A stretch of 64,000 nucleotides of DNA from Nitrosopumilus sp. (GTDB lineage Archaea > Thermoproteota > Nitrososphaeria > Nitrososphaerales > Nitrosopumilaceae), in contig OZ241981.1 of assembly GCA_965204345.1 (NCBI GenBank), forward strand, positions 32,001 to 96,000, read 5' to 3'. A program made the position numbers and the translations under genes. Position 1 is the stretch's first letter, and every line of letters begins with the position of its first letter. Under the pieces are notes generated by a model. The model did not search any database. It was not told where the DNA came from and saw only the letters and a list, made by a program, of their open reading frames with translations. Below are positions 36,637-53,578 of the stretch, in pieces.

Positions 36637-36937
36637 ATGTTGTTTTTTAGTGCTGTTTTTTTGCCTTGATCACATTCACATTGAACTGTTGCTTGGATGA
36701 TTTTTTCCAAAATCCAATGGATTCCAACTATAAAAAAAGACGCAAGAATGCTGTGTCTGAAATTATTCTGGTTCTGGCCTCTTCTTTATCGTCATCAAAC
36801 CATCTGTCATTTTTAACTGGCAGCCAACTGACTTTTCTGCAAGGTTCCTCTCATGCTTTTATCTGCAAAGATGTTGCATGTAACATGGATGAACCGGGGG
36901 TTCTTTTCAATCCGTTTGAGTTCCTTCTATCTCTCTC

Positions 36938-37867
36938 TTACTTGCTCCCAATTTGTACAAATGATCCTGCTGAAACCGTCAGGCCTGCACATTTTTCAGG
37001 CTGAATAATCCTTGCAAGAATCTCTATTCCTTCTACGGTTCTGATGCCAGGCTTGCTAAAAAATGAGTCTGCATCCACTGCAAAAATCTTGTTATTTTTC
37101 ACAGCTCTTAGTGTTCTCCATGCCTTGTTATCTCTTAAAATTACGTCATATTCTGAAATTGTCCGCTTTGTGTCAAAACCGCATGGCATCAAAACTATGA
37201 TATCTGGATCTGACCTGATAATCTCATCTGTCGCCAGTCTTCTTGAATGCTCCCCTGCTTTGCTAATCATGTTTATTCCTCCTGCAATTTCAATCATTTC
37301 TGGAACCCAATGCCCTGCAGTAAAAAATGGCTCAATCCATTCGATTGCCAATACCTTGGGTTTGTTATTGCTGATAATTTTTCCAATGTCTGCAACTCTT
37401 TTTTCAAGAGAATCTGCTATCTGTCTAGCTCTTTTGCTGCATTCTAATATCTTGCCCAGTATTGTTATTGATTCTATGATCTCCTTGATACTGTGGGGAT
37501 CCATGGAGTGCAGAATCGGCTTTGTCCCAAGGATCTTTACTGCCTTATTCACTTGACTTGTATACGCGGCACAAACCTCGCAGGTACCCTGGGATATTAT
37601 CATGTCCGGATTTGCATTTTTCAAATTTTCTTCATTTAAAACAAAAATGTCTTTGCCCTCGCTTTGCAGCTTGCAAGTTGCTGCATCTATTTCCTTGCTG
37701 GTTAGTTCCTTGGAATTAATCACCGTATCTATGACTCTTGGTTTTGAGCATGCATCCTGCGGATATCTGCATTCGTGTGTTACTCCCTTAAGCTTGTCCT
37801 GTCTCCCTAATTCGTATACTAGTTCGGTTCCGCTAGGCACAAATGAGACGATTCGACTTACTGTCAT
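36938..37867 (-). CDS. Cobalamin/iron ABC-type substrate-binding protein (BtuF-like)
   Basis: RIVSFVPSGTE, GVTHEC, CEVCA, AGHWVPEM, PCGF. Confidence 0.82.
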   Translation of the reverse strand: MTVSRIVSFVPSGTELVYELGRQDKLKGVTHECRYPQDACSKPRVIDTVINSKELTSKEIDAATCKLQSEGKDIFVLNEENLKNANPDMIISQGTCEVCAAYTSQVNKAVKILGTKPILHSMDPHSIKEIIESITILGKILECSKRARQIADSLEKRVADIGKIISNNKPKVLAIEWIEPFFTAGHWVPEMIEIAGGINMISKAGEHSRRLATDEIIRSDPDIIVLMPCGFDTKRTISEYDVILRDNKAWRTLRAVKNNKIFAVDADSFFSKPGIRTVEGIEILARIIQPEKCAGLTVSAGSFVQIGSK

Positions 37868-37965
37868 GGTTTTGACTAGATGATATTTTACTTAAACGCC
37901 CTGTTTGCTGGCGATCAATTTTTGTCATTAGGCAAGTTAATAGGCATTTTTTAGGTACAAAAACC

Positions 37966-39123
37966 ATGATTTCAGACTCTGAAAATATTCGTAGAGCCAT
38001 CCTGTCTAGATGGCACGAATCTCTTTTAAGGCATGGCAATCTGTTCTCTTCTGATTTTGTGAGCGGTGCTAGTCCTCCGTCTGTATTTGTTGGATCATAC
38101 AACTACCCCAAAGTCCTCGTTGGTCCTATGGTGCCCCCAATTCATGGGGATACTAGTCTGTTAGATAGCCCTGAGCGATGGACAGGAAAGTCTTTAGAAG
38201 ACATTGTAAATTTTAGGCTCAATTTGGTCAGGGGCACACAAAAAATTCCAATAGGACAGACTGACGGGCGATACGTTGAAAATCTCCAAGAAGTTACAAT
38301 GTCTTCAAGGCCTATTGATTCTGATCTAGTTTTTCAGAGTTCTACTGCCCCTAGTGTTTCACTTGACGGTGAGAGTGCCCCTTTTGGTCCTATTGGCCAA
38401 ATAAAATCTGCAAAATTCTCTGCAAATGCTCCTGTAAAATCTATAGAAAAAACATACTATGACAAGGATCTAAAAGCTCAAGATGCTGTTTTAAATTTAT
38501 ATAATTCCGGAGTAGAAATTTCAAAAATCCAAAAATGCTTCAGTATTGGAATGCTCGGATGCAAAAGGAAGCTTGTTCCTACTAAATGGAGTATTACTGC
38601 AACTGATGATATTATTTGCAAATCGCTTACCGAGGACGTGTTAAACTACGGCCTGATTGACTCGCACAGGGTCTTTTCGTATGAGCATTTGGGGAATATC
38701 TTTTGCGTGGTATTGTTTCCACACCGATGGGTCTATGAAATGATTGAGGCCTGGTATTCTAACGGTGTCTTGGGTTTTGGCTCTGACTGTGAGGATGCCC
38801 GCGGAATTGATCATCCTCCCACTATTGCCGGTGCATATTTTGCTGCAAAACTAGGTGTTTTAGAATACCTTGTCAAAAATAAAGTTCAAGCAGGAGCTGT
38901 AATTTTACGAGAAATCCGTCCCGAGTATGCCATCCCTGTCGGTGTGTGGCAAGTGAGAGAGGGCGTCAGGGAGGCAATGAATAAAAAGCATCTCTTTGCC
39001 GATGATTTTGAGCACGCACTAACTTTGGCCTCAAATAAAACGAGCATCAGTAAATCTGAGTGGCTCATGCATGGAAATGTTGTCGAACTGACCAGACAGA
39101 AAGCTATTTCTGATTTTTTTTAA
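37966..39123 (+). CDS. nreA: Archaeal DNA repair protein Nre family
   Basis: SPPSVFVGSYNYPKV, LVPTKWSITATD, PVGVWQVRE, C-terminal PIP box QKAISDFF. Confidence 0.9.
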   Translation: MISDSENIRRAILSRWHESLLRHGNLFSSDFVSGASPPSVFVGSYNYPKVLVGPMVPPIHGDTSLLDSPERWTGKSLEDIVNFRLNLVRGTQKIPIGQTDGRYVENLQEVTMSSRPIDSDLVFQSSTAPSVSLDGESAPFGPIGQIKSAKFSANAPVKSIEKTYYDKDLKAQDAVLNLYNSGVEISKIQKCFSIGMLGCKRKLVPTKWSITATDDIICKSLTEDVLNYGLIDSHRVFSYEHLGNIFCVVLFPHRWVYEMIEAWYSNGVLGFGSDCEDARGIDHPPTIAGAYFAAKLGVLEYLVKNKVQAGAVILREIRPEYAIPVGVWQVREGVREAMNKKHLFADDFEHALTLASNKTSISKSEWLMHGNVVELTRQKAISDFF

Positions 39124-39189
39124 AATCTGCTGATTTAATTTTAAATATCATAATTTTGCATAAGTATTTTTTTGGGGGTTATTAGTAAA

Positions 39190-39736
39190 ATAATGAACTA
39201 TCTACCTTTCCTAACAATTCAAAAGATCATCAAACATTTCAGAAAAAGCTGCAGACAGAGGCAGTAAATACGCAGAAAAAAACTCTTAATCAATAATAAA
39301 GAACTTTGATAAACTCTGTAAGGAAAAATATGACAAACAGGTGGTGAGACAATTAAAAGCGATTCGTGATGAATATTTTACTAAAACTGGAAGAAGAAAT
39401 ATGACAAGCAGGAGATCAGACCAATAGCAGAATATCAAAAAATAGATCTAGGTATTGTTTACAAGTTACTCCAAGAGTGGATCAACTGGAACAGCAAGAA
39501 TATGCTTCTAAATGATATCCCAGTTTTTTCATGTATTAAAAAAATATCTCAGATATCACAACATAAAGATCACAAAAGAGGATATGGAAAATTCTCCGGA
39601 TTTTCCATACATGATCAAAGAGGAAAAACACCCACTGACAAAAGAGGAGCTGCAAGATATTGAGTCTGAGCAACAGGAAAAATTATCTCAAAATTATAGG
39701 ACAGTTATCAAGTGGATTAAGATTGATAGGACTTGA
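39190..39736 (+). pseudogene. Decayed N-terminal part of a thaumarchaeal tyrosine integrase
   Basis: Fragments IIKNFDKLCKEKY / VYKLLQEWINWNSK / LKKYLRYHNIKITKEDM...EEKHPLTKEELQDI in shifted frames with stops; no catalytic domain. Confidence 0.55.
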
Positions 39737-39759
39737 CAAGTACATTCTAATAAATATCA

Positions 39760-40085
39760 AAAAGTGAATTTTTCAGAATGAAAATATTATTACATGGTAT
39801 TTAGAAAAATTATCCATAAATTAGAGATTTCAATATGTAAGAATATCTCCTAAAATAAGAAATATCATTACACGGTATGATTTAGAAAAGAGAATAAATA
39901 TTCAAAGATTAGCGTGAAAAATACCAAAATCTACGTATAAGCCTGAACAATTTCTATGTCTGATCTTTAGAATTTAGGATAGATTGATTGGATTATCTTT
40001 GCATCGGAGAAGGGTATATTATCGAGAAGAAAACCATCTCTGAATTAAATCAAAAATGTTTGAAGTTCAAAGATGGATAAAATAT
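39760..40085 (+). pseudogene. tbp: Decayed TATA-binding protein gene
   Basis: VRISPKIRNIITRYDLEKRINIQRLA*KIPKSTYKPEQFLCLIFRI*D, then in shifted frames IFASEKGIL / KTISELNQ; aligns to the second repeat of the TBP at 46536-47075; stops at 39915 and 39975. Confidence 0.8.
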
Positions 40086-40127
40086 ACACTTGTCTAATCT
40101 TTTATTAGAGTTTTGTTGGTGGAAATA

Positions 40128-41474
40128 ATGGTGACACAGATAGAATTTGAGAAAGAAAATCTTCCAGAAGGATGGATTGTAACAGCAATTAGCAACATAA
40201 CAGAAACTGTACAAAAAATTAATCCTAAAGATACCCCCAATAAAATATTCCATTATTGTGACATAAATTCGATCGATAATAGTAGATTACAAATTACCAA
40301 TCCAAAACAAATTTTGGGTAAGAATGCACCATCTAGAGCAAGACAACTAATTAAGAAAAATGACATATTATTTTCCACTGTTCGAACATATTTGAAAAAT
40401 ATTGCGATGGTTCCAGAACATTTAAATGATAATTTGGCATCAACAGGATTTTGTGTTATACGAGCAGGAAAAATTAATGAAAAATTTATGTTTAATTATA
40501 TACAATCATCTCAGTTCATTGATCTAATAAACAGTGCACAAAGAGGAATAAGTTATCCAGCTGTAAGAAATAATGATGTACATAATAGCATTATTCCTCT
40601 CCCCCCACTCAACGAACAAAAACGCATCGTTACAAAAATCGAATCAATCTTCACACAGATTGATGCATGTAAAGAAGAATTAGATGTATTTGCATCGCAG
40701 ACCAAATCAGTTTCTTATAGTTTACAAACATTGAAGGGAAATATATTAAAACAAATGTTTGAAGAATTAAATAAAAAACACAGAGCAGATATGTTAGAGA
40801 AGGTGTGTATTGATATCCAATCGGGATTTGCTCAAGGGGAAAAAGATGTAAAAAATGGAATAATTCATCTTAGAATGAATAATATAGATACAAACTTCAC
40901 AATGAATTTTGAACTACTTCGGACTATCAATGCTACAAATAAACAAAAAGAAAAATATCTTTTACAAAAAAATGACATACTTTTTGTGAATACGAATAGT
41001 GTAGAATTAGTAGGCAAATCTGCTATTTTTACATTTGATAAAGACTGTCTTTATAGTAATCATTTAACACGTCTGCGCACTAATATTTCTATACTAGATC
41101 CAAAATTTCTCTTGTATTATTTTTATTATAAATGGATAAAACATGATTTTCGAAGTATATGTAATAAATGGATAAATCAAGTGGCAATTAATACTACAAA
41201 AATTAAACAACTACAAATTCCTCTTCCTCCCCTCAACGAACAAAAACGCATTGTTACAAAAATCGAATCAATCTTTGACAGGATTGATGTAAAACAAGAG
41301 GAAATGAAAAAGATTGAGATGCAGTTAAAATCAATTCCCGACAGCATTAATACATTGAAAGGCAGCATATTAAAAAAAGCATTTGAAGGTAAGTTGGTTC
41401 CACAGAATCCAAATGACGAACACGCATCTGTACTTCTTGAGAGGATAAAATCCCAAAAATCTAGGAAAATATAA
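40128..41474 (+). CDS. hsdS: Type I R-M specificity subunit (hsdS copy 1, complete, two TRDs)
   Basis: LPEGW, two IPLPPLNEQKRIV conserved regions, SILKKAFEGKLVPQNPNDE tail. Confidence 0.95.
   Translation: MVTQIEFEKENLPEGWIVTAISNITETVQKINPKDTPNKIFHYCDINSIDNSRLQITNPKQILGKNAPSRARQLIKKNDILFSTVRTYLKNIAMVPEHLNDNLASTGFCVIRAGKINEKFMFNYIQSSQFIDLINSAQRGISYPAVRNNDVHNSIIPLPPLNEQKRIVTKIESIFTQIDACKEELDVFASQTKSVSYSLQTLKGNILKQMFEELNKKHRADMLEKVCIDIQSGFAQGEKDVKNGIIHLRMNNIDTNFTMNFELLRTINATNKQKEKYLLQKNDILFVNTNSVELVGKSAIFTFDKDCLYSNHLTRLRTNISILDPKFLLYYFYYKWIKHDFRSICNKWINQVAINTTKIKQLQIPLPPLNEQKRIVTKIESIFDRIDVKQEEMKKIEMQLKSIPDSINTLKGSILKKAFEGKLVPQNPNDEHASVLLERIKSQKSRKI
40593..40666 (+). repeat. Inverted repeat A (left copy), 74 bp; partner 47835-47908
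   Basis: 73/74 nt identical to the reverse complement of 47835-47908. Confidence 0.95.
41233..41296 (+). repeat. Inverted repeat B (left copy), 64 bp; partner 47157-47220
   Basis: 57/64 nt identical to the reverse complement of 47157-47220. Confidence 0.9.
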
Positions 41475-41499
41475 ACACATGACATAAATTTACAAATAG

Positions 41500-42189
41500 T
41501 TGTTTATTCAAATTTCCAAGATAAAGAAAAAATATAATATCTTTACTAATAACATGCAAATGATTATGAGATCTAATTTACAAAATGATACTGGCCTAAA
41601 AATTCACAATAAAATAATTTTACAATTTTTTAAAGATTGTAAAGATAAAAAATTGTTATCCAATACAATAAAACCACAACAGAATAATACTATATGTACT
41701 CGTTGGGATATATCTAAGTTAACCGATCAAGCAATTCAAAAAATACGTAAACATAGGATTGATTTAAAAAACAATGAAAAAACACAATTTCTAAGTGATA
41801 AAGAACATGATGCCTTACAGTTTTCTCGCTGTGTGTCTTTTTTGAGAGACACTACCGAAGATTTGAAAATTTCATTACAGTTAATTATTGATCCATCACA
41901 AGTAAAATCATGTACTGAGCTTGGAAAATACCTTAACGAAATTTATAATAAACTAGGTTATAATGACGACAAGAAATCCAAAATGAATCGTGCCTTTCAA
42001 AAAGATCTCAGAAATGCATTAAGTCATAACAATTATTCGTATAAATGTGATAAAAACCATGTAAAGAGCATAACATGGCAAGATCATAATCAAAAACACA
42101 CATGGAATCAAGTGGAATTGTCCAAATCCATCTCAAAGATAATTTGCATAAATGGACTAATTGGCAAAATAATTAATGGGAAATTCTGA
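41500..42189 (+). CDS. Hypothetical protein with HEPN-like RxxxxH motif
   Basis: DLRNALSHNNY in a helical context; AT-rich; true start probably near 41554. Confidence 0.6.
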   Translation: MFIQISKIKKKYNIFTNNMQMIMRSNLQNDTGLKIHNKIILQFFKDCKDKKLLSNTIKPQQNNTICTRWDISKLTDQAIQKIRKHRIDLKNNEKTQFLSDKEHDALQFSRCVSFLRDTTEDLKISLQLIIDPSQVKSCTELGKYLNEIYNKLGYNDDKKSKMNRAFQKDLRNALSHNNYSYKCDKNHVKSITWQDHNQKHTWNQVELSKSISKIICINGLIGKIINGKF

Positions 42190-42197
42190 TACCGTGC

Positions 42198-43697
42198 TTA
42201 TTTTGGGATTTCCTTGTTGATAATGTCTTTTATATCTTCAAATGACTTGATCATGCCCTTTCTTAGATCAATAAACTGATCAATTAATTTGTCTGGTGGC
42301 AGAACAATTGTTTCAATTACATCTGTTGGATTGTTGGAGTCAAGATTGAAATCCTGAATGTCTTTAACATTAATTTTCCATGCATTTTCATTTGATGTCT
42401 TCTTTTTGAACCATTTTTCAATCTCTGCAAAGTCGTCATATGCGATTGGGTTTGACTTTGTATATTTGGGATTCTTTGCACGAGTTACTCCACGCAATCG
42501 TTCGGCTACCTTCATTTGATAATACCAAATTTCTTTGGTTGGTCCTGTCTTGTCAAAAAACAGTATGTTTGTTGCAATTGATGTGTAAGGCTCAAAAACA
42601 GTTTTGGGCAGCCTAATTATCGTATGCAAGTTAAATTCTTCAAGAAGTTTTTTCTTGATTTTAGAGGCAACGCCTCCTGCAAACATTGGACCATCTGGAA
42701 GAATAATTCCACACCGTCCTCCTTCTTTTAGAGAATACATGATGTATAACAAGAATGAAAGAGCAGTATCTGATGTCTGCATTCCTACAGGTAGATTGGA
42801 TGAAATTCCTTCCTCCTCTTCCCCCCCAAATGGTGGATTCGTTATGATAAGATCATACTGGTCATTTTGAGAAATTTCTCTCAGAGGATTAACAAGTGTG
42901 TTTGCTCTGATAATGTTTGGTTTGTCTACCTCATGAAGAAGCATATTCATCATTCCTAAAAGATAAGGCATGGATTTTTTCTCGATCCCAAATAATGTGT
43001 TTGTAGTTAGTTTCTTCAAATCTCCTTTTGTTTTTTGTTCATGTCTTAGAAACTCCAAAGATTCTACCAAAAATCCACCTGTACCACATGCAGGATCTAA
43101 TATCTTTTCAGATTTTTTTAGACTAGGGTTGATTTGATTTACAATAAACCGAATTACAGGTCTTGGTGTGTAAAATTCTCCACTATTTCCTGCGGCATCT
43201 CTCATCTCAATTAACATATCTTCATAGAGTTTTGCCATGGTGTGAATGTCATCAGTATTGATAAAATTTACCTTATCTATCAGATTAATAATCTGTCTGA
43301 GGAGGTATCCACTGAGTATTCTATTGTTTAATTCTTTAAAGATCGTTGCAATGACATCTCTTTGTTCAAAACCTTTATCACCTGTCAGTTTTGAGAGTTT
43401 TGGAAATAATTTATTATTTACAAATGAGATTAGATCAGGACCTGTTAAAACCTTGACAGTACGTCCTTTCTTATCTTTTTCTGCTGCCCAATCCTGCCAT
43501 CGTAATCCCTTTGGTATTGCCTCCACATATTTTCTATTTAGAGCAGCCCTCTCTCTTTCAAAATCATCAAAACTCTTTAGGAATAAAATCCATGCAATTT
43601 GAGGAATTCTATCAACATCAGTATTAAGACCTGCATCTTTTCTCATTAGATCTCTTGCAGATTTTATTATAGAACGAAGTGAATGTGCATCCATCAT
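42198..43697 (-). CDS. hsdM: Type I R-M methyltransferase subunit (m6A)
   Basis: GEFYTPR, LDPACGTGGF, NPPF, IIRLP. Confidence 0.96.
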   Translation of the reverse strand: MMDAHSLRSIIKSARDLMRKDAGLNTDVDRIPQIAWILFLKSFDDFERERAALNRKYVEAIPKGLRWQDWAAEKDKKGRTVKVLTGPDLISFVNNKLFPKLSKLTGDKGFEQRDVIATIFKELNNRILSGYLLRQIINLIDKVNFINTDDIHTMAKLYEDMLIEMRDAAGNSGEFYTPRPVIRFIVNQINPSLKKSEKILDPACGTGGFLVESLEFLRHEQKTKGDLKKLTTNTLFGIEKKSMPYLLGMMNMLLHEVDKPNIIRANTLVNPLREISQNDQYDLIITNPPFGGEEEEGISSNLPVGMQTSDTALSFLLYIMYSLKEGGRCGIILPDGPMFAGGVASKIKKKLLEEFNLHTIIRLPKTVFEPYTSIATNILFFDKTGPTKEIWYYQMKVAERLRGVTRAKNPKYTKSNPIAYDDFAEIEKWFKKKTSNENAWKINVKDIQDFNLDSNNPTDVIETIVLPPDKLIDQFIDLRKGMIKSFEDIKDIINKEIPK

Positions 43698-43728
43698 TAC
43701 TCATAATCGTATCGACATTAAATATGAT

Positions 43729-46095
43729 TCAGTTGTCTCTATACAATTCCTTTGTTAATTGTATTATTGCACCATCATATTCATCACCATCTTTGAATCT
43801 GTGATTGATGATTTCAGTAGGGCCTCCAAACTGTTTGAATTTTGGCAATTTCAAAACTCCTCTTTCCTCCAACTCTTGATACCCCTCCTCTGCATAATGA
43901 TCCAATATCACCTCTAGAACTTCTCGTGCTTTGTTCGGATATTTCTCCAAAAATGCCTTTTTATGTACAGAATTGATCCTCTCTAATCGAGTTTTTGCAT
44001 CTGCATTAAATGCAAAATGTAAGAGCATATCAAATGAATCAATCTTAGCCATCTGAGTGATTTCTTTAAGATGTGAAAAACTAACGCCTCTCTCTTCTAG
44101 TTGCTTTACAAAATGCTGTCTTTTTTCAGGATCTGTCCATATCTTGTATAGTTTTGTTTGTTCATCATTTACTAGACGGCGAACAGTCTCTCCAGTATAA
44201 TCTTGATAAGAAATAAGCCTATTCTGATTAATTGATTGATCAAAAATTAAAACCGATTCACCACGAATTTCTACTTTTTTTCCATTTATGTGATATGTTT
44301 TAATTGTTTGTGATTCTTGTTCTTCTTCTGCTTTATCTTCTAGTGCCTCTTTTACTGCATTTCTTCTTTTCTCTTCTGCACGTTCTAAGATTTTTTTTTC
44401 TTTTTCTTTAGTAATTATTTCTTGTTCTTCTTCAGTTTCTGCAATTGCAGGACCATCCCATTCTACATCCTCAAACAATCTACTAGTTTTTCTATAATCT
44501 ATAATTGAAAACCACATCTTATCTTTTGGTTCATAGACACGGGTACCTCTACCAATAATTTGTTTGAATTCAGTCATGGAATTAATGCTCTTATCTAATG
44601 CAATTATCTTGCATGTTGGAACATCTACGCCTGTTGACATTAATCTAGATGTAACTGCAACAATTGGAAAATCTTTGTTTGGTTCCTGGAATTGATCCAA
44701 GTATTCTCGTCCTATTTCACCTTCAGCAGAAACTATTCTGACACAATAGTCATGTCTTTCTCCAGAATAATTTCGAATTAGTTTAGTCATTGCTTGTGCA
44801 TGTTCTGAGTTTTGACAAAATAAAATCGTCTTGTTATATTTTTGATTATTTTTCTCCAAAAAATCTACAAGGTGTTTTGCTACGGTCTTTCGTCTCTCAT
44901 CAACAATTAAAATTCTGTCAAAATCTTTATAGCTGTATGTTTTGTCATCAAGTATCTTTCCATCTAAATCCGTTTCCCCTGGTTTTGGAATATATCCCGT
45001 CAGATCAATTTCAAGATTAACCCTGTGAATCATGTATGGTGCTAAAAAGCCATCTTCAATTCCTTGTTTTAGACTGTATGTGTATATAGGAATACCAAAA
45101 TAATCATACGTATCTTTATTTTCGTCCTTTCGTTTAGGAGTTGCAGTCATGCCTATGTGAACAGCATCTTTGAAATAATCCAATATCTTTCTCCAGCTCC
45201 CATCCTCATTGGAGCTTCCTCTGTGACATTCATCAATTATTATGTAATCAAAGAAATCTTTTGAATATTGCTTGTACAGCTCACAATCCTCTTTATCTAC
45301 ATCAAGTGCTTGATATAGTGCAAAATACATACTATATGCAGTCTGTGCAACTTTTTGGATCTTGTGTCTTGCTTCACCAAAACCTGCAAATGCATTATTT
45401 TTTGCTTGATCTAACAAAACGGTTCGATCTGCTAAAAATAAAATTTTTGGATGTGGGGTATCTTTTTTCCAGAGTTTTTGTGCAATTTGATAAGATATGA
45501 ATGTCTTGCCAGTTCCAGTCGCAAGATTTAAGAGTACGCGCTTCTTTCCTGCAAGAATTGCTGTTAATGTGGAATGGATTGCAATTTCTTGATAGTACCG
45601 AGGTTCCATGGGAGATCCTCCTGGATCTTTTGAACTTCGATCCAACGACTCTAATATAACATTCATTTGTTTTTTATTAAAATTTATACCTTCTTGGAAT
45701 CTCTCTAGTAATTCTTGAGGTGTTGGAAATTTATCTATTGTTTGTTGTTGTTTTTTGGAAAAGTCATATTCTTCAATTTTCTGTCCATTTGTTGCAAAAG
45801 CAAATTTTAACTCCATTTTTTCAGCATATTTTATTGCCTGACTCATTCCTTCATCATGTGGTTTGTCCCATGCTTTAGCTTCTATTACTGCAATTTTGTA
45901 ATCATCACCCAACTTGAGAATGTAATCAGCTATGATTGGTTGTGCCCTTTTTCCAGTACGGCCATCAGGAGTAATTCTGCCTTCATTAATTTTATATTCC
46001 CTAATGATTTTATCTAATTCCCAACCAGATTCTGCTAGCTTGGGATCAATATGTCTCATACAAGTGGTTGATTCGGACATCTTTTCTTCAGTCAA
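43729..46095 (-). CDS. hsdR: Type I restriction endonuclease subunit R (EcoAI/type IB-like)
   Basis: ADY...IEAK nuclease motif, RYYQ, ATGTGKT, DECHRG, TATP, QIIGRGTR, EcoEI-type C-terminus. Confidence 0.95.
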   Translation of the reverse strand: MTEEKMSESTTCMRHIDPKLAESGWELDKIIREYKINEGRITPDGRTGKRAQPIIADYILKLGDDYKIAVIEAKAWDKPHDEGMSQAIKYAEKMELKFAFATNGQKIEEYDFSKKQQQTIDKFPTPQELLERFQEGINFNKKQMNVILESLDRSSKDPGGSPMEPRYYQEIAIHSTLTAILAGKKRVLLNLATGTGKTFISYQIAQKLWKKDTPHPKILFLADRTVLLDQAKNNAFAGFGEARHKIQKVAQTAYSMYFALYQALDVDKEDCELYKQYSKDFFDYIIIDECHRGSSNEDGSWRKILDYFKDAVHIGMTATPKRKDENKDTYDYFGIPIYTYSLKQGIEDGFLAPYMIHRVNLEIDLTGYIPKPGETDLDGKILDDKTYSYKDFDRILIVDERRKTVAKHLVDFLEKNNQKYNKTILFCQNSEHAQAMTKLIRNYSGERHDYCVRIVSAEGEIGREYLDQFQEPNKDFPIVAVTSRLMSTGVDVPTCKIIALDKSINSMTEFKQIIGRGTRVYEPKDKMWFSIIDYRKTSRLFEDVEWDGPAIAETEEEQEIITKEKEKKILERAEEKRRNAVKEALEDKAEEEQESQTIKTYHINGKKVEIRGESVLIFDQSINQNRLISYQDYTGETVRRLVNDEQTKLYKIWTDPEKRQHFVKQLEERGVSFSHLKEITQMAKIDSFDMLLHFAFNADAKTRLERINSVHKKAFLEKYPNKAREVLEVILDHYAEEGYQELEERGVLKLPKFKQFGGPTEIINHRFKDGDEYDGAIIQLTKELYRDN

Positions 46096-46535
46096 TTTTC
46101 AACATAAAATTTTCAACATATTTCTAGATAAATGTTCTTTTTGAAAAATCAAATATTTTAGAATAAAATCAAGATTTGAATCTGCGAAATATTTTTGAGA
46201 ACTGATCTATTATACAGCTAACCATAGTGTGTTTATATCAGATCAAGAATAGGTGTGACTCTGAAAATATCTGGAATTTCTTGTATGGTGTAACAAGCAT
46301 TAGCTTGAACTCCTCTGTACAGACTGATTTTCACCTCCAATCATAACATTAACAAGTATTTACTTGTTGGACAGTAACGCAAAATATGCAAAATGAGAGA
46401 TGTTCATTAGATCTACAATTGTGGTACTTCGCACTATTGGATCTTTGGTTTTTATTTAGATTAGGACATATCTAGACAACTGATTACAAAATAGATTCAA
46501 TCTTAACAATTATTAGAAAAAATAAGAAAATTTCA

Positions 46536-47075
46536 CTAGATACATCTTACCTTGATATCAAATAATGCAGAATTTACTTCTGCAATGGTTTTTGCCCCTG
46601 CAATAACTCCTTTTCCTGATGCAAACAAAAGTGCTACACAGCTATCTTGAATTCTATATATCAAACCGGGAAATTGTTCTGGTTCATACATACTTTTTGG
46701 TAATATTCTTACAAGTTTTTCTATTGGCAAATTTTGTTTTAAATCGAATCGCGCTACAATATTTTGCACTTTGGGAGTAATTTTAATGAGTTTTGCAAGA
46801 TTATAATTATCCAGTATTTTTATTGCTTTTTTTAATTCTTTTTTAGATTGTGCAGGATTCTTTGTTCCAACTGAAATAAGTTTTCCATTTCCAAATACAG
46901 TAACTCGTCCAACCATCAAATCATCTTTTACATACCTACACCTGTATAAAGCAATATTTGAGCTGAGAAAGGGATATTTGTTAAAAGAAGCAATATCTAT
47001 TTTCTGTTTAAGATCTGCTGTAGTTACAGTGTTTTGAATTTTAATTCCTGCTACAAGCTTTGACTCTTTTTGCAT
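46536..47075 (-). CDS. tbp: Divergent TATA-box binding protein
   Basis: Two TBP repeats: IQNTVTTADL...VFGNGKLISVGTK and VQNIVARFDL...YEPEQFPGLIYR...LFASGKGVIAGAK. Confidence 0.9.
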   Translation of the reverse strand: MQKESKLVAGIKIQNTVTTADLKQKIDIASFNKYPFLSSNIALYRCRYVKDDLMVGRVTVFGNGKLISVGTKNPAQSKKELKKAIKILDNYNLAKLIKITPKVQNIVARFDLKQNLPIEKLVRILPKSMYEPEQFPGLIYRIQDSCVALLFASGKGVIAGAKTIAEVNSALFDIKVRCI

Positions 47076-47086
47076 TAAAATTCATG

Positions 47087-48346
47087 TTACCCTATCGCAT
47101 TAAAAATGAATGTATTATTCACATATGTGATTTTTTGTTTGATTAAATATAATATCTGCTTTACATCAATCTTGTCAAAGATTGATTCAATTTTGGATAC
47201 GATGCGTTTTTGTTCGTTGAAAGGCGATAGTAAGACAGGAATAGTTTTCATTGCTGTCTGATTAAGTTTCAATCGTGTTGTCCCAGTTACATATCCATGA
47301 TAATTCACCTGATTCAAATAGTGGCAAAGAAATTTGTTGATCAATAATCCAGATATTCCTTTAAGAACATGAGCATGATTATTAACCCAACTTTTTCCAT
47401 TAACAATGTAGGCTTTGTTTTTGAAAGTTTCAAAAAATGGTGCACCGTCTTCTCCCAACAAAACCAATTCTTCATCAAAAATATAATCATCAATCAAGCC
47501 AACTTGACCAGTAGCACCATAATATGGAATATTTCCAGTACGATTTTTCCGTTCACTAGAATTTACTGGTATTCTTTTTCTGTCCCAAATTTCTACAATA
47601 TCTTCCAAATTGATCTTAATCCAACCTTCTGGAAGATTCTCTTTCTCAAAAATCAACTCTTTCTCAGAACTCTTATGCAATCTCCTCAAAAGCATCTCTG
47701 CTGGCTCATCAGCTGGATCCTGTGAAACCAGCTTGCCCTCAAAGGCCTGCTTGAGCACGCTACTTCTTAGCATCCCCAGGCTGCCAGAAGATGACTTTAT
47801 TTGAGATGCAAGTGCCTCCAGCTTGTTTTGTGCCGCATCAATCTGTGTGAAGATTGATTCGATTTTTGTAACGATGCGTTTTTGTTCGTTAAGTGGGGGG
47901 AGAGGAATTGAATATATTGCCAGCTTTTCATATTTTATTCGAGGGTGTTGAACTCCTGTCATATTTCTATTAGCAAAACGTACAACCTGACTGGTAGATA
48001 AAAATAACATAATGTATTTGCTAACCAGATTGTCATTTTGTTGGAAAACCAATATGTCTGTGGAACACACTCCGTTAAAATCTGGAATTGCTACTTTGTT
48101 TAGATATGGACGTAATTTTCCATAAAGAATATCTCCCTTACTAAAGACATTTTTTGTGCTCTTTGTATCTTTTGAATTGGCCTTTCCAATAATTTTTCTT
48201 GAATTACTTTCTATGTGTTCTAATCCCACAAAAGGTTGATTTTTCTCATTCTTTGGATCAAATTTTCTTTTTGATTGATTCAGAACATTCAGTAAATCTG
48301 TTCTAATCCACCCTTCTGGAAGATGCTCTTTCTCAAAAATCAACAT
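47087..48346 (-). CDS. hsdS: Type I R-M specificity subunit (hsdS copy 2, two TRDs, C-terminal conserved helix truncated)
   Basis: LPEGW x2, KLRPYLNK, IPYYGATG, WVNNHAHVL; homology ends abruptly after IDVKQ. Confidence 0.9.
   Translation of the reverse strand: MLIFEKEHLPEGWIRTDLLNVLNQSKRKFDPKNEKNQPFVGLEHIESNSRKIIGKANSKDTKSTKNVFSKGDILYGKLRPYLNKVAIPDFNGVCSTDILVFQQNDNLVSKYIMLFLSTSQVVRFANRNMTGVQHPRIKYEKLAIYSIPLPPLNEQKRIVTKIESIFTQIDAAQNKLEALASQIKSSSGSLGMLRSSVLKQAFEGKLVSQDPADEPAEMLLRRLHKSSEKELIFEKENLPEGWIKINLEDIVEIWDRKRIPVNSSERKNRTGNIPYYGATGQVGLIDDYIFDEELVLLGEDGAPFFETFKNKAYIVNGKSWVNNHAHVLKGISGLLINKFLCHYLNQVNYHGYVTGTTRLKLNQTAMKTIPVLLSPFNEQKRIVSKIESIFDKIDVKQILYLIKQKITYVNNTFIFNAIG
47157..47220 (-). 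repeat. Inverted repeat B (right copy)
   Basis: Partner of 41233-41296; marks the point where hsdS2 homology stops. Confidence 0.9.
47835..47908 (-). repeat. Inverted repeat A (right copy)
   Basis: Partner of 40593-40666. Confidence 0.95.
48305..48337 (-). repeat. Inverted repeat C, 33 bp (tttgagaaaga..atcttccagaagg.tggatt); other copies 47618-47650 (-) and 40146-40178 (+)
   Basis: Three near-identical copies encoding FEKE(N/H)LPEGWI at TRD starts. Confidence 0.88.
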
Positions 48347-48559
48347 ATCAATTCTTTGTTTCTTTAATTTAAATTAGTCAAGTAACAGTTAAAGTGAAAA
48401 ATAGAATTTTATAAATCATAACAAATGAATCTCCTGCAATTGTTGCAAAGCTTTGAAATTATTGTACTATACTCCAAGGAGATTGTCATTGTGACATAAA
48501 CGTACTTTGTCTTTTCTTCAGATATTATAGTTAATGGTTTTATCTAGTTTATTAGCCAT

Positions 48560-49486
48560 TTAGATCTCTATTTTATACATGACTTTTTTGAATTCCCTAA
48601 AGAGATCTTCTAGGGTAGGCGTCAGATATACATGATCAAGACCATTTTTGTGACCCATTAGCTTTTCTGCAATGTTATAGTTTACTGAATTGTCCAGTTT
48701 TAAGACAGTATTGTATCGCTTTCTAAAACCATGATCTGCTTGGACGTCAAAACGATTTTTTGATTTTATTCTTTTCAGGTTACTTTTCTGAATTATTCTA
48801 TAAATTGCAGAACGAACGCCGTTCCAACCTAATTGTTTTGGAAGGAATTTGGTTGTTGCAAATATGGGAGTATCTTTGTAAAATATTTCTCCTTGATTTT
48901 TACGATATTCATGATAAGCTTTCAATGCCTTGGTTGCTTGTGGTGTAAGAAATGCCCAATACTCCTCAACATGTCCCGCATAAAGCAATATGCCAGTGCA
49001 ACCATATGACATCTTCATCATGTGTTTTATGGATAAATCGTGATCAAAAACTCCCACCCTTGCTCCTGTTGAACTAAAAAAGTACACCAAAGCTTTGTTC
49101 CTAAGGCTTGTTGTGTTGGATAATAATTTCTTGATTTCTTTTGTCGTATATGCCCTCAAGCTTTGCGTTTTTTGCTTTTGTGGGAACATTTTGTTTATGA
49201 TGTTCCAGTTAAGATTAATCTCATTCATTATACAGAAATGCTTTATGCCCTGAAACTTTGATGGGATAGAATTGGGGTTTGTAGTACGCTTTAGCTCGAT
49301 TAAATAATTCTCAAGATTATACTGCAAGTCTGTATTTGGAATACTTGTTAGTTGATTTTGGGATGTAATGTTTGCAAAATTTAAAAAAGAGTTAAGATGT
49401 GATGTATAATTCTTTTTTGTGTATTTTGATTTTATCGACTCTTCAAATAATAATGAACATCGATGTTTAGTTATTAAATTACTCAT
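48560..49486 (-). CDS. Tyrosine recombinase/integrase
   Basis: STGARVG (R), HGFRKR (H-x-x-R), LMGH...HVY (H, Y): catalytic set intact. Confidence 0.9.
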   Translation of the reverse strand: MSNLITKHRCSLLFEESIKSKYTKKNYTSHLNSFLNFANITSQNQLTSIPNTDLQYNLENYLIELKRTTNPNSIPSKFQGIKHFCIMNEINLNWNIINKMFPQKQKTQSLRAYTTKEIKKLLSNTTSLRNKALVYFFSSTGARVGVFDHDLSIKHMMKMSYGCTGILLYAGHVEEYWAFLTPQATKALKAYHEYRKNQGEIFYKDTPIFATTKFLPKQLGWNGVRSAIYRIIQKSNLKRIKSKNRFDVQADHGFRKRYNTVLKLDNSVNYNIAEKLMGHKNGLDHVYLTPTLEDLFREFKKVMYKIEI

Positions 49487-50208
49487 GTATTATTTTATTG
49501 TAAAATATTTATTTTTGTACATATGTTTATGAAATTAGAGCATCTTAATTTTTAGGATCATAATACTTTATCAAGATTGTTTTATATTCCCAGCATAAAA
49601 TCACAAACAGATTATTCTCTGATGATTTGGCATCTTGTAATATTTCCAAAATTGTTCCCATCTTTAAGATATGATTGCCTGCAGCTCATAATTAGTCATA
49701 CTGATAAAAAATATCGTTAGATTTACGTATGGAATTAAGGTCCAGAATGCCAAGTATCAATCTTTGCAGAAGTTAATATAACCTGGTGTAAAATATTGCC
49801 CTACACCTAAAATTATTACTGTAAAAACCAAAGAAAACCCAGAATAGTCTGCATTGGATTCTATTAATGAACTAACTGATGATTTGGACAAAACTTGGTG
49901 TTTCTTAGTTTAACTAAAATCAAATCCTGATTATAAAGACATTAATTTTTTTCCATATCATATGCATATGCCAAAGGGCATCAAAGGTAACTATCTTGCG
50001 CAAATTTGACACTTGCAGATGAATTTGATTACAGTTCATCAAGAAATGCCAATTTTGAATCCATGAACAATTACGTAACGTAATCATCATCTTCTGGGGC
50101 ATGTGTGCGTGCGTTTCTACTCTATCTTTTTTTTCATCATTGGAATTATCTGCTGATCTGCCCTAATCAGAGAGCATAAATCCTAGATTTAAATAAAAAA
50201 ATGAAACG

Positions 50209-50964
50209 ATGAATGAAGATTTGGCGGGAACTGATTATTCCAAATATGGCAAATACACAGTTGATGATTCTCTTGAATTGTCCCTGCCTGGAACCACTAT
50301 AAAATTTGAAAAAATAAGCGAAAATGCTTTTTCATATTTTAGAGAGGATTCTGAGGGCAAAATAACTGAAAAAATGATCCCTGTTCATTCTGATGAATTA
50401 AAGATTGAAATGGCTCCTATCAGGCCCCTTAACCATCCGGCAAGACGTACCGGATACGTCTTTTTAAAATTTGACAAGGAAATCTATCTCAGCCAAAACT
50501 CTGCGGCTAGCATCTTTGTCCACTGCCCAATCGAAGTTGGCATTTTCATAGTTAATGGACCTGCCAGAGAATCCCTGGATTGGATTACGTGCAATCCCCT
50601 TAATTCTAGGTTTGGCCTGTATGGCCCTCCTGATACCGGAATTTTGTGCAAGTATGCCAAAGTCACACTGGCTACTGACTTTGCAGATTCTGTTCCCTAT
50701 GTTGAATGTGTGATGAAAGTTGTCATTGAAAATAATCTGAGTTCCGGGCAAACAATTAGCAAAATAATTTTCCCAATTACTGATAATTCCCTCTACTATG
50801 AAGACTCTAAATCTGTCTTAGATGGAATCAAAGTGACTTTGAAAAAGCGGGCAGTTGTCAGTATTGCAGATGTCCAAACTGCCGTATTGGATACTGACTG
50901 GAAAAAATCCCCCACATGGGAAGACAACACAAAAAATACCTCCATGGAGATGGGATTGGAATGA
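50209..50964 (+). CDS. DUF432 domain protein
   Basis: PIRPLNHP...CPIEVGI...LYGPPDTGILCKY; adjacent to mscS as is common in archaea. Confidence 0.75.
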   Translation: MNEDLAGTDYSKYGKYTVDDSLELSLPGTTIKFEKISENAFSYFREDSEGKITEKMIPVHSDELKIEMAPIRPLNHPARRTGYVFLKFDKEIYLSQNSAASIFVHCPIEVGIFIVNGPARESLDWITCNPLNSRFGLYGPPDTGILCKYAKVTLATDFADSVPYVECVMKVVIENNLSSGQTISKIIFPITDNSLYYEDSKSVLDGIKVTLKKRAVVSIADVQTAVLDTDWKKSPTWEDNTKNTSMEMGLE

Positions 50965-51788
50965 CTCCGATAGACTTTCTTTCTGGACTGTCAGAAATAG
51001 AGATTGCAGGCGGCCTGAACGTTCTCTCATTACTGATTGGCGGAATCATTATGGCTGCCGGAATCATTATTGCAAAGATTGCAAAGCTGATTTTCTTCAA
51101 ATATTACGCCCCAACTTTGCCTCAGGACACTGCAAAGAATTTTGGCAAAATAATTTATTTTGGAATAATCGTAATGGCGTTTCTTGCGTTTACTTCCAGC
51201 CAGGGCCTTGACTTTTCAGGCCTGCTTGTAGCAGGCGGGATCTTTGCCGTGGTGATTGGATTTGCAACCCAATCAGTAGTCTCCAACTTGATCTCAGGTG
51301 TCTTCTTGATGATTGAAAAACCTGCAAAGCATGGCGATACTTTGCAGATTCCTGACATGGGAATATCTGGAACCCTGCTGGATATTGGCACTTTTTCTAG
51401 CAGGGTTAGAAAGTTTGACGGGACTGTAATTCGAATACCAAATGAGAAATTCTTCACATCCAATATCCGCTCATTAACTGTCTCAACTGTAAGGCGGGCT
51501 GAGGCCATGGTGGGAATTGCCTACAGGGCTGACATTGAAGATGCCATATCCTCAATTAGGGCTGAAATCTTACTTGGGATGCCCTTTGTGCTGAGGGTTC
51601 CAGAGCCTGAGTTCCGTGTCGAGGAACTGGGCGATTCTAGCGTAAATATCCAGGTATTGGTATGGCATCCCCGTGATGATTGGAGCCAGGCCCAGCCCAT
51701 TTTGCTGACTACGATAAAGCGCGCATTGGACAAATCTGGAATAGAAATCCCGTTTCCTCAGCGTGTTATCTGGGATGCCAAGGATTAG
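50961..51788 (+). CDS. mscS: Small-conductance mechanosensitive channel
   Basis: GFATQSVVSNLISG, IPNE, VGIAY, LGDSSVN, GIEIPFPQR. Confidence 0.92.
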   Translation: MTPIDFLSGLSEIEIAGGLNVLSLLIGGIIMAAGIIIAKIAKLIFFKYYAPTLPQDTAKNFGKIIYFGIIVMAFLAFTSSQGLDFSGLLVAGGIFAVVIGFATQSVVSNLISGVFLMIEKPAKHGDTLQIPDMGISGTLLDIGTFSSRVRKFDGTVIRIPNEKFFTSNIRSLTVSTVRRAEAMVGIAYRADIEDAISSIRAEILLGMPFVLRVPEPEFRVEELGDSSVNIQVLVWHPRDDWSQAQPILLTTIKRALDKSGIEIPFPQRVIWDAKD

Positions 51789-52069
51789 ACTGGTATCTTC
51801 TTAATTTGCTTACTTTGCGCTCTCTTTTTCTTGATCAAGCTAAACATGATCATTCCGACATTGACAATGGAAATTATTTCAATCAAATCCACTCCGTACA
51901 GGAACCAGTCAATTACTGGGTGCACCCTGGAGACAATTCCAGCTTCTAGCATTATGTCTGCATTCCATATCATGTGTGGAACCTGAATGAACTGTATGAT
52001 TGCAATTAAAATTATACTTCCCAGGATTTTATCCTCGTACCAGTTCCAAAATTTGTTCCATACGTTCAT
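51785..52069 (-). CDS. Small membrane protein
   Basis: Two hydrophobic segments, basic tail. Confidence 0.7.
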   Translation of the reverse strand: MNVWNKFWNWYEDKILGSIILIAIIQFIQVPHMIWNADIMLEAGIVSRVHPVIDWFLYGVDLIEIISIVNVGMIMFSLIKKKRAQSKQIKKIPV

Positions 52070-52189
52070 GCACCATGTTGGTCTTTAATTCTATTAAACG
52101 CGTCGGAAATTAGATTCTCCTAATTAGACCTGCCTAATTTTTTTAGGAACAAGAACCGCTAGTGCAGCCTAGTTAGTACCGACTAATTT

Positions 52190-53578
52190 TTATTTTTCGG
52201 CCTTGATGACTTCTTTGCGCATCCAAACGGTTTTTCCTTTATGATCAATTAATTCTATGTTCATTTTCTTTAATTCGTTTCGAATTTTATCTGCAACCTC
52301 AAACTGTCCTGTTTTTCTTGCCTGCTCCCTGTCTGTGATCATGCCGTCTATTGCCTGCTTGTCCTCCTGCGTTATTTCCGGAATGGACAATCCCAAAATG
52401 CCTAACATTCGCTTTAGTTCTATTCTAATTGTCTGGGAATCTTCTCTTCCTAATTTTTCTTCGGCTGCCAGCCTGTTTGCCTCTCTTACTAGTTGGAAAA
52501 ATGCAGATAATGCAAGATGGGTGTTCATGTCATTATCTAACGCATCATTGAATTGACCGCCTAGTCTTGCCACCATCTTATCGGACTCTTCATCTTTGTG
52601 ATTCTCTGCATGGATTAGCTCATAGTAGCATGTCTCTACCTGCCTCCACTTGGTAAGATTTTCTTTTAGCAGTTCCTCAGAATAGTCTATGGGTTTTGAA
52701 TAATGTCCTGATAGGCAGAATAACCGTATGATGTTTGAGCCCCAATTTTCCAAAACATGTCTTATTGACTTGACATTGCCTACAGATTTTGACATTTTTT
52801 CGCCCTCTATGGTGACCATTCCTACATGCATCCATGTTTTTGCAAACTGGGCATCTGTACATGATTCTGACTGTGCAATTTCGTTTTCATGATGTGGAAA
52901 GATAAGATCACGCCCGCCTCCATGAATCTCAAAGTTCTCCCCCAGGTATTTCACGCTCATAGCCGAGCATTCTATGTGCCATCCAGGTCTTCCCCTTCCC
53001 CACGGGCTGTCCCATGCAGGCTCTGATTCTGAGAACTTCCATACTGCAAAATCCAAGGGGTCTTTTTTTTCTTCATCTACCTCTATTCTTGCTCCTGATT
53101 GGAGCTCATCTATCCTCTTTTTTGATAATTTCCCGTATTTGGGGAATTTTGATACTGAAAAGTATACTCCGTTTTTTGCCGTATATGCTATTTCTTTCTC
53201 AACTAGTTTTTCTATAAATTCTATGATATCTGCAATGTGTTCTGTTGCTTTTGGATAATTTGTGGCACGTTTTACATTTAATTCATCAAAATCTCTGAAA
53301 TAGTTTTCAATGTATCTTTTACTAATCTCTTTGGCAGACTTTTTTTCTGCATTTGCTCTGTCGATGATTTTGTCATCCACATCTGTAAAGTTTTGAACAA
53401 GTTCCACCTCTGTTTCCTTGCTCTCTAGGTATCTTCGTAACACGTCAAAAACTATGATTGTTCTTGCATGTCCTATGTGCGATTCATCATATACTGTAAC
53501 CCCGCATACGTATATTTTGACTCTTTTTGCTGTATCTACAGCCTGCTCTGATCTTGATAGCGTGTCCTGAATTTTCAT
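52190..53578 (-). CDS. cysS: Cysteine--tRNA ligase
   Basis: YVCGVTVYD, HIGH, PGWHIECSAM, KMSKS. Confidence 0.97.
   Translation of the reverse strand: MKIQDTLSRSEQAVDTAKRVKIYVCGVTVYDESHIGHARTIIVFDVLRRYLESKETEVELVQNFTDVDDKIIDRANAEKKSAKEISKRYIENYFRDFDELNVKRATNYPKATEHIADIIEFIEKLVEKEIAYTAKNGVYFSVSKFPKYGKLSKKRIDELQSGARIEVDEEKKDPLDFAVWKFSESEPAWDSPWGRGRPGWHIECSAMSVKYLGENFEIHGGGRDLIFPHHENEIAQSESCTDAQFAKTWMHVGMVTIEGEKMSKSVGNVKSIRHVLENWGSNIIRLFCLSGHYSKPIDYSEELLKENLTKWRQVETCYYELIHAENHKDEESDKMVARLGGQFNDALDNDMNTHLALSAFFQLVREANRLAAEEKLGREDSQTIRIELKRMLGILGLSIPEITQEDKQAIDGMITDREQARKTGQFEVADKIRNELKKMNIELIDHKGKTVWMRKEVIKAEK

Follow-up and report, generated by a model that had tools for sequence, protein, structure and literature searches.

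The window analysed here, a stretch of 64,000 nucleotides from Nitrosopumilus sp. (contig OZ241981.1 of assembly GCA_965204345.1, positions 32,001 to 96,000 of the forward strand), contains a gene for a divergent paralogue of the TATA-binding protein (TBP), designated P0001, within a type I restriction-modification (R-M) locus, and comparative evidence from sequence supports a recurrent TBP/R-M module of which this gene would be one instance. The gene (46536–47075, minus strand) begins with ATG and has no internal stop, as judged from the open reading frame (ORF) and its translation, and its 179-residue product matches the Pfam TBP family PF00352 in two stretches (E 1.9e-31, 108.2 bits against a cut-off of 22.9), in agreement with a first-pass annotation of this DNA that had described an intact TBP inside a restriction locus. 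On the minus strand the order is tyrosine recombinase, hsdS2, TBP, a 440-nt spacer, hsdR and hsdM, the TBP gene being co-oriented with all three hsd genes as that annotation had stated, and the plus strand of the same region carries nre, hsdS1 and an ORF of 229 amino acids. The ATG at 47075 is separated by 11 nt from the last base of the hsdS2 stop codon (47087), within a base of the 12 bp first reported.

HsdM, HsdS and HsdR were all matched by both Pfam and PADLOC, identifying the surrounding locus as a type I R-M system. The hsdS2 gene directly upstream of the TBP gene (47087–48346, minus strand) encodes a specificity subunit with two target-recognition domains (Pfam Methylase_S, 6e-33, two stretches; PADLOC Specificity_I), hsdR, 440 nt downstream of the TBP gene (43729–46095, minus strand), encodes a restriction subunit of 788 residues (Pfam ResIII, EcoEI_R_C and Helicase_C; PADLOC REase_I, 4.8e-208), and hsdM (42198–43697, minus strand) encodes a methyltransferase subunit of 499 residues (Pfam N6_Mtase, 5.3e-63, and HsdM_N; PADLOC MTase_I). 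The spacer between the TBP gene and hsdR (46096–46535) is presumed to be the hsdR promoter region, and the corresponding junction in a second allele of the locus, contig C3, is 57 nt long.

The whole variable island (39126–50019) lies between nre, its left neighbour (37966–39123, plus strand), and a DUF432 gene, and comprises a TBP fragment, hsdS1, the 229-residue ORF, hsdM, hsdR, TBP, hsdS2 and the recombinase gene. A second complete specificity gene, hsdS1 (40113–41474, plus strand; Methylase_S, 5.8e-23), is inverted relative to hsdS2 and has inverted repeats in common with it. The 229-residue ORF downstream of hsdS1, between hsdS1 and hsdM (41500–42189, plus strand, from the ORF call), had no match over cut-off in Pfam, none in NCBIfam or PADLOC and no blastp relative in the first 22 related loci. 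The tyrosine recombinase of 308 residues (48560–49486, minus strand) is likely the hsdS invertase or an integrase; its matches to Pfam Phage_integrase (1.6e-5) and an NCBIfam XerA-type model (2e-14) are both below cut-off, and relatives at 58–70% identity occur in 9 of the 22 related loci fetched first and in locus L059. The TBP fragment, which the first-pass annotation had missed, is a decayed C-terminal repeat between nre and hsdS1, just upstream of hsdS1 (39837–39995, plus strand; PF00352, 32.3 bits). It has two in-frame stops (one TGA, one TAG) and 45% identity over 53 amino acids to P0001 residues 97–149, and the same fragment is found on contig C3.

TBP paralogues and R-M loci in the genome

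A scan of the whole genome with PF00352 identified three canonical TBPs, both of whose repeats score highly (975 kb, 1749 kb and 1938 kb of contig C1), three divergent TBPs with a poorly scoring first repeat (the window copy, the C3 copy and one at 228.7 kb of C1), and two copies of the decayed fragment. P0001 is thus not the only TBP of the genome, which would have counted against the first-pass interpretation, and the explanation that it is simply the housekeeping TBP was rejected, given three canonical copies elsewhere. The TBP at 228.7 kb, which also has the RCGYVK core, adjoins a second, unrelated type I system consisting of two half hsdS genes, a 1019-residue HsdR of the T1RH type, a 448-residue integrase, hsdM and a further hsdS. 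Strong HsdM and HsdS matches were present at only three places in the assembly (the window, contig C3 and 229–238 kb of C1), and because these places coincide with the divergent TBPs, each type I locus of the assembly has a divergent TBP and vice versa. All three canonical TBPs lie at least 737 kb from these places. The genome also encodes six transcription factors B (TFBs), none of them inside an island. One TFB gene is located in the window at 29964–30875 (minus strand; PF00382 matches C1:61994-62527), 9 kb left of the island, and a second at C1:103282-103827, just beyond the window.

A distinct TBP family with a remodelled first stirrup

The canonical stirrup motif (E/Y-x-P-E-x-F-P-G) occurs in P0001 only in repeat 2, as YEPEQFPGL, the same stirrup as in the canonical TBPs of the genome (alignment A1), and repeat 1 has SSNIALYRCRYVK instead, residues 36–50 (FLSSNIALYRCRYVK) forming a remodelled stirrup. 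This asymmetry had been noted in the first pass, and the strings quoted there for the two loops are present in the translation. A private oddity of the strain was rejected as an explanation, since P0001 has relatives in more than 120 database clusters at 64–78% identity, all of them PF00352; the ESM Atlas returned generic TBP clusters only. Alignments of the family show an N-terminal stirrup of LSSNLxLYRCGYVKDDxMxGRVTVF where canonical TBPs have EYHPEQFPGLVFRL, together with a canonical second repeat. The family motif overall is Y-(G)-G-R-[CV]-[GA]-Y-[VIL]-K..M.G-[RK]-V, with LYRCGYVK as the family consensus and YGGR[CV][GA]Y[VIL]K in members on contigs labelled Thermoplasmata, Asgard and Nitrososphaerales. 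Across 34 family sequences (alignment A2), N15, V17, Y44, F61, N105, V107 and F135 are invariant, Y44 occupying the position of the first stirrup Phe of canonical TBPs. P0001 and its family retain the C-terminal stirrup, the central Asn/Val and, at the kink positions, three Phe and one Tyr; the roles of these positions in P0001 are taken to be those familiar from other TBPs.

An AlphaFold2 model of P0001 (pLDDT 92.6, pTM 0.84, with the lowest confidence at residues 31–50) predicts the TBP saddle of two alpha/beta repeats, and the top 44 listed matches in a Foldseek search with this model were all TBPs (E to 1.4e-16, TM ~0.86, rmsd ~2 Å over 173 residues). With phmmer, only repeat 2 of P0001 could be aligned, and it matched each repeat of solved TBPs; repeat 1 is too diverged in its first half. 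An IQ-TREE tree of 166 rows, which included 69 database representatives, placed the 34 locus-derived family proteins and 42 of the 69 representatives in one clade (SH-aLRT 100, stem length 1.0), and the two correctly translated canonical TBPs of the genome and every control TBP fell outside it, which is the separation that the first-pass annotation had proposed to look for in a phylogeny. One row, own_canon_975k (branch length 7), was in the wrong frame and was disregarded, so the genome's own canonical TBPs were judged from the other two. The family is a distinct monophyletic group of TBP paralogues that keeps the whole saddle and the canonical C-terminal stirrup.

Three database representatives, P0127 (376 residues), P0264 (702 residues) and P0125 (272 residues), are long proteins that either match TBP in three or four stretches or include a TBP portion as part of something larger, and may be fused or tandem forms. 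ORFs of 171–203 residues with weak PF00352 matches (29–40 bits), at G394:C1:1681521-1681754, G296:C1:2160684-2160917 and G218:C1:299732-299959, may be still more divergent TBP-like genes.

Recurrence of the family beside R-M genes

Neighbourhoods were compared at 34 non-self loci (22 fetched from genome searches and 12 non-duplicates of the 29 family loci in a genome-contig scan) from Nitrosopumilaceae, Nitrososphaerales and records labelled Thermoplasmata and Asgard, which were read by blastp or tblastn against the hsd and integrase proteins of the window's genome and by Pfam. R-M genes were present within 10 kb of the family TBP at 23 of the 34 loci. The same scan also yielded 50 loci of ordinary TBPs (methanogens, DPANN and others), and none of these gave an hsd or integrase match by tblastn. 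The first-pass annotation would have been contradicted by a family showing no enrichment beside R-M or mobile genes; the TBP/type I R-M module that it had not recognised as a known defence system is instead recurrent, with instances in further archaeal phyla and beside R-M systems of other types. Type I genes account for 17 of the loci (L011, L014-L018, L020, L021, L023, L028, L029, L031, L059, L066, L076, L077 and L078), and the remainder have a type IIG-like methyltransferase with an SNF2/PLD helicase (L013), a type IIG-like enzyme with DpnI (L075), a type ISP enzyme (L024), type III-like Mod and Res (L079) or type II enzymes (L019 and L026). A further six loci have only a recombinase, a mobile-element primase, an EVE-domain gene, an HFX_2341-like gene or Abi genes (L012, L025, L027, L061, L073 and L081).

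The association is often intimate. L031 has the gene order hsdM-hsdS-TBP-hsdR-ygjP, its TBP stop and hsdR start overlapping by 4 nt, and the TBP and hsdS genes overlap in L023, L142 and C3. The TBP gene closely precedes hsdR on the same strand in the window, C3, L031 and L143, and another restriction enzyme gene in L013, L024 and L077. Among metagenome contigs, 31 were classed as non-canonical by failure of a regular expression for two canonical stirrups, and hsd matches were found on 10 of these (L132, L134, L137, L138, L139, L141, L142, L143, L147 and L155), including 6 of the 9 that are at least 4.5 kb long, with hsd or integrase matches on 0 of 49 canonical metagenome contigs. Of the 361 flanking ORFs listed for the control loci, 137, drawn from 25 of these 50 loci, were submitted to PADLOC as a more sensitive check, and no type I gene was among the matches, which included two solitary methyltransferases (L086 and L097) and generic helicase and Cas1 hits. 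In five Nitrosopumilus genomes, all 13 canonical TBPs lay at least 88 kb from any HsdM match, and 4 of 6 full-length family TBPs lay within 10 kb of one, where 2.1% was expected (binomial P 2.6e-6, a figure that overstates the case as the genomes are kin and not independent).

Other genes were observed beside family TBPs. A DUF5655 gene lies directly next to the TBP gene in two distant loci, L030 (8759–9667), which has no type I genes, and L078 (7469–8407), which has them. Genes for HFX_2341-like or Csa3-like regulators occur about 5 kb from the TBP gene in L013 (4137–4880) and L073 (4748–5596), and in L061 an EVE-domain gene lies 45 nt upstream of TBP.

At the level of the class, 18 of 401 genomes had a match of E 1e-28 or better; the genus is represented by 83 of the 401 and by 10 of the 18. 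In 121 genomes of the family Nitrosopumilaceae (27 genera), matches above the canonical level were found in five, the non-carriers including three unpublished genomes, and the records of the closest relatives are labelled Nitrosopumilus. Decayed family fragments recur beside hsdS genes, recombinase remnants and other R-M enzymes (window 39837–39995, L024, L025, L027, L041, L074 and L081), which suggests repeated gain and loss at such sites. The family is an optional, patchily distributed and often decaying accessory gene of R-M loci and variable islands. Two family contigs, L078 and L059, carry bacterial labels as metagenome-assembled genomes (Pirellulales and Hyphomicrobiaceae), which are probably binning errors; L059 is clearly Nitrosopumilus-like (TBP identity 65%, recombinase identity 59%). 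A truly bacterial host for L078 would argue against a TFB-dependent role.

Inversion and allelic variation of the island

The TBP gene lies between inverted hsdS repeats, which in the window are short and imperfect (33–123 nt, 82–94%). Repeat I3 has a left arm of 64 nt inside the 3′ part of hsdS1 (41233–41296, 89% complementary) and a right arm inside the 3′ part of hsdS2 (47157–47220), 82 nt upstream of the TBP start codon, and repeat I1 (123 nt, 82%) pairs 40593–40715 with 47786–47908. When contigs from four public runs were mapped to 38000–50500, hsdS1 and hsdS2 were found joined on opposite strands at 41280|47172 (run X6, at I3), 41216|48307 (X1) and 40593|47616 (X5), indicating that the segment inverts in nature, and the placement of TBP within an invertible segment, putative in the first-pass annotation, is borne out. 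The locus thereby has the hallmarks of a phase-variable type I R-M system, with inverted hsdS genes that have repeats in common, a recombinase gene (below the Pfam and NCBIfam cut-offs) and both orientations seen. Inversion at I3 would place TBP-hsdR-hsdM behind hsdS1 rather than hsdS2, with the TBP gene retaining its own 82 nt of upstream DNA. Because TBP keeps this proximal DNA and is downstream of an hsdS in either orientation, and many family loci have neither a recombinase nor inverted hsdS genes, the first-pass suggestion of a global transcription switch coupled to the inversion is not favoured.

The island also varies as a whole. In run X5, depth was ~220 at the flanks and ~30 over the island, and a contig at depth 217.5 connects 39125 to 50020; in the majority of cells of this population the whole 10.9-kb island is thus missing or replaced. 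Contigs from runs X5 and X6 also omit 687 nt (window 47638–48326) between 41-nt direct repeats in hsdS2, a deletion that removes one target-recognition domain and is a second route to specificity variation. As traces of insertion, no tRNA gene was found in 36000–52500 and no direct repeat longer than 8 nt at the borders 39125 and 50020.

Contig C3 of the same assembly (10.6 kb) is an alternative allele of the same chromosomal slot, its ends matching the island flanks at 99.5% and 92%. Its hsdM and hsdR belong to another family with no nucleotide similarity to those of the window, and the hsdS framework is retained. Its hsdS-TBP-hsdR block is oppositely oriented relative to nre, and its hsdS arms extend over 750 nt at 99.6%. 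The C3 TBP gene has 92.5% nucleotide identity to the window copy (a 95% identical copy), and the two alleles differ by 23.5 synonymous and 9.5 non-synonymous changes, giving a ratio of non-synonymous to synonymous rates (dN/dS) of 0.097, which indicates that the TBP gene is functional and under purifying selection. The small contigs C2, C5, C7, C8 and C9 are strain-variant copies of chromosomal regions at 90–99% identity; C7 contains a ~2-kb element with at least 10 copies on C1 at 81–88% identity, probably an insertion sequence.

Proposed role and alternative explanations

The role that we favour, at close to but short of an even chance, is that P0001 acts as a locus-linked transcription initiation factor or regulator, similar to a controller, of the R-M genes. 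In archaeal TBPs the C-terminal stirrup is the TFB-binding side, and this role fits best because the predicted TBP saddle fold is kept together with an unchanged C-terminal stirrup, while the likeness to a controller comes from the recurrent hsdS-TBP-hsdR order and from TBP genes directly ahead of other restriction enzymes. The saddle would bind and bend an AT-rich box, the unchanged stirrup would recruit host TFB and RNA polymerase, and the remodelled N-terminal half would alter which promoters or partners are preferred. The TBP paralogue would then set how strongly or when the restriction genes, and the recombinase gene where present, are expressed, which would make it an archaeal functional counterpart of the bacterial R-M controller (C) proteins. 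One TBP subclade is paired with three unrelated HsdM/HsdR families as well as with non-type-I enzymes, which makes a fixed partnership with an R-M subunit unlikely and is better fitted by a DNA- or host-directed regulator.

Several observations weigh against this role or against the generality of the link. No R-M gene was found within 10 kb at 11 of the 34 loci, and five (L022, L030, L032, L068 and L080) have no mobile or defence gene of any kind. The orientation of TBP relative to the R-M genes is variable (co-directional, divergent or convergent), and because gene order varies in this way there is no single operon logic. P0001 departs from its own family at residue 47, which is Arg in place of the Gly of at least 90% of members, and its best score among NCBIfam TBP models is 105.5 bits, missing all equivalog and subfamily cut-offs (181–347), compared with up to 239.7 bits for a canonical paralogue of the same genome. 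Inspection by eye of 160 nt upstream of 16 family genes, which has low power, found no special common box; these regions have ordinary AT-rich, TTTAAA-like boxes ~25–40 nt before the start. Contigs from an RNA-library run (X9), which cannot show transcription, include pieces on hsdM and hsdR and traces at 46757–47590, with the TBP gene barely touched.

Further points come from the reverse question, whether type I loci have a family TBP. In 121 genomes of the genus there were 40 HsdM matches (E 1e-40 or better) in 29 genomes, of which 10 had a family TBP within 16 kb and about 30 did not. When 20 of the 30 loci that were TBP-free by coordinate were fetched, 18 had no TBP, one had a 53-residue family fragment (L041) and one had a canonical TBP (L045). 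Seven of the 20 combine a close relative of the recombinase with several hsdS genes and no TBP, among them L051, the nearest relative of the window system (HsdR 77% and HsdM 85% identical), which indicates that the TBP gene is optional for type I function and for hsdS shuffling. The link is thus one-way, in that the family tracks R-M loci and most type I loci do without it. The canonical TBP of L045 (6733–7233), 2 kb from hsdM, is an orthologue of the 1749-kb TBP, which adjoins a TFB gene in the window's genome; it is a chance neighbour, and adjacency alone is weak evidence.

An unlikely alternative, although the one that survives best, is that the paralogue is an effector of defence or counter-defence, serving as a sensor of, or decoy for, viral factors directed against host TBP, or as a dominant-negative TBP that sequesters TFB or occupies promoters when restriction fails. 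The patchy occurrence and repeated decay described above resemble those of defence genes, the islands also hold TIR, AbiEii, AbiGi, DpnI and HEPN defence genes, and a protein that is half canonical and half remodelled would suit such a task. An effector of this kind does not, however, predict tight adjacency specifically to R-M genes as opposed to defence genes generally, and a dominant-negative TBP that is constantly present would be costly. No model in PADLOC-DB 2.0 matched P0001 or the second paralogue (0 families), and in viral contigs 20 matches to two patterns included no family relative, hence no mirror-image viral partner is in view.

It is quite improbable that the paralogue is instead an architectural cofactor of the tyrosine recombinase, its saddle bending DNA at hsdS inversion or integration sites in the manner of IHF or Fis and so controlling hsdS shuffling or island movement. 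The TBP-bearing segment does invert in public data, a recombinase relative at 58–70% identity lies within ~3 kb of TBP in L011, L012, L014, L015, L020, L021, L023, L026, L027 and L059, the order of TBP followed by recombinase recurs in L011, L012, L015, L020 and L026, and L012 and L027 have TBP and recombinase without hsd genes. Against this, family loci L013, L017, L019, L029, L066 and L075-L079 have no recombinase within 10 kb, the seven TBP-free loci above have the same recombinase family and several hsdS genes, and pure bending has no need of a conserved C-terminal stirrup. A predicted complex of the TBP paralogue with the recombinase (alignments A2 and A3) scored 0.00 and was uninformative either way.

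We give a similarly small chance to the absence of any functional link, in which an alternative general TBP, involved in stress or niche regulation, merely occupies the same hypervariable islands as R-M genes. Ammonia-oxidising archaea (AOA) have 2 to 5 TBP copies, read as a regulatory expansion in PMC7554672, and one sponge Nitrosopumilus has a TBP orthologous group of its own, interpreted in PMC6697440 as serving environmental sensing. The five loci with an ordinary core neighbourhood and the chance proximity in L045 are in keeping with this explanation. Coincidence does not readily account for start and stop codons that overlap hsd genes in several lineages, or for a link that recurs over at least three HsdM/HsdR families, four other R-M types and several phyla, when canonical and ordinary TBPs elsewhere show no R-M link. 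Finally, a DNA-bound helper of translocating restriction enzymes, whose saddle, tightly bound at AT-rich DNA, would halt type I, ISP or III motors as a roadblock or marker and thereby determine cleavage sites or shield host promoters, accords with the predominance of ATP-dependent translocating or sliding enzymes among the adjacent partners (type I in 17 loci, ISP in L024, III-like in L079, SNF2/PLD in L013) but is speculative and highly improbable, as the type II (L019, L026) and type IIG-like (L075) neighbours do not translocate, most type I loci function without a TBP and no reason is offered for the conserved TFB-side stirrup.

The regulator role for P0001 belongs to a broader proposal, to which we assign a probability appreciable but clearly under one half, that the asymmetric TBP paralogues of Nitrososphaeria and of contigs labelled Thermoplasmata and Asgard are a true and previously unrecognised accessory component of R-M systems. 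A basal transcription factor would have been recruited into defence, either as the archaeal answer to the controllers that time restriction when a cassette enters or flips, or as a DNA-bound partner coupling promoter-like sites to restriction. If so, this would be the first general transcription factor family to act as part of a defence module and would account for part of the unexplained TBP expansion in AOA, and a natural system with one TBP stirrup re-engineered and the TFB side kept would offer a handle on the function of the second stirrup of archaeal TBP. The family signature, together with the neighbourhood rule, could also help to locate R-M and defence islands in metagenomes of archaea.

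Comparison with known systems

The partnership between TBP and R-M is recurring and apparently undescribed; the open full text that was searched holds no account of a TBP linked to R-M, and an earlier report is possible in subscription journals and supplements, which lay outside the search. Compared with canonical archaeal TBPs (PF00352; 1mp9, 1ais and 2z8u), the paralogue has the same length and predicted two-repeat saddle fold (TM 0.79–0.86) and has in common with them the C-terminal stirrup YEPEQFPGL, the central Asn/Val and three of the four stirrup/strand Phe residues. It differs from them in its YRCGYVK-type N-terminal stirrup, in forming a separate, long-stemmed clade, and in being accessory and island-borne rather than core.

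Specialised TBP paralogues, such as the eukaryotic TBP-related factors and the TBP/TFB sets of haloarchaea and AOA, are likewise duplicated TBPs and are thought to serve subsets of promoters, but those are chromosomal regulators that are not tied to a gene class on mobile islands. A basal factor paralogue on mobile DNA of the same phylum is known from TFIIB homologues on thaumarchaeal integrative-conjugative elements (PMC6563490). The factor there is a TFB, located beside ParB and conjugation genes, and the text of that paper, in which "TATA" has no occurrences, also places type I R-M in cryptic elements.

The likeness to the C proteins of bacteria lies in a small, predicted DNA-binding protein that is encoded in R-M loci, frequently a short way ahead of the restriction gene, and is optional among related systems, with a role that for the paralogue is only proposed here. 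Bacteria control restriction genes by controller proteins or by proteolysis, and C proteins, which occur chiefly in type II systems, are helix-turn-helix proteins that repress and activate bacterial promoters; to our knowledge, the control of restriction genes in archaeal mobile R-M cassettes is essentially unknown. The paralogue, in contrast, is predicted to have a TBP saddle and not an Xre-type helix-turn-helix, would use the archaeal basal machinery and is associated mainly with type I systems, and no equivalent of the C-box was found upstream of the 16 family genes inspected by eye. The window also resembles shufflon-type, phase-variable type I loci, with its two inverted hsdS genes that have repeats in common, its neighbouring recombinase and its opposite-strand joints. 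It differs from such loci in that its inverting segment contains a TBP gene, and we know of no bacterial phase-variable type I locus that carries a gene for a basal transcription factor.

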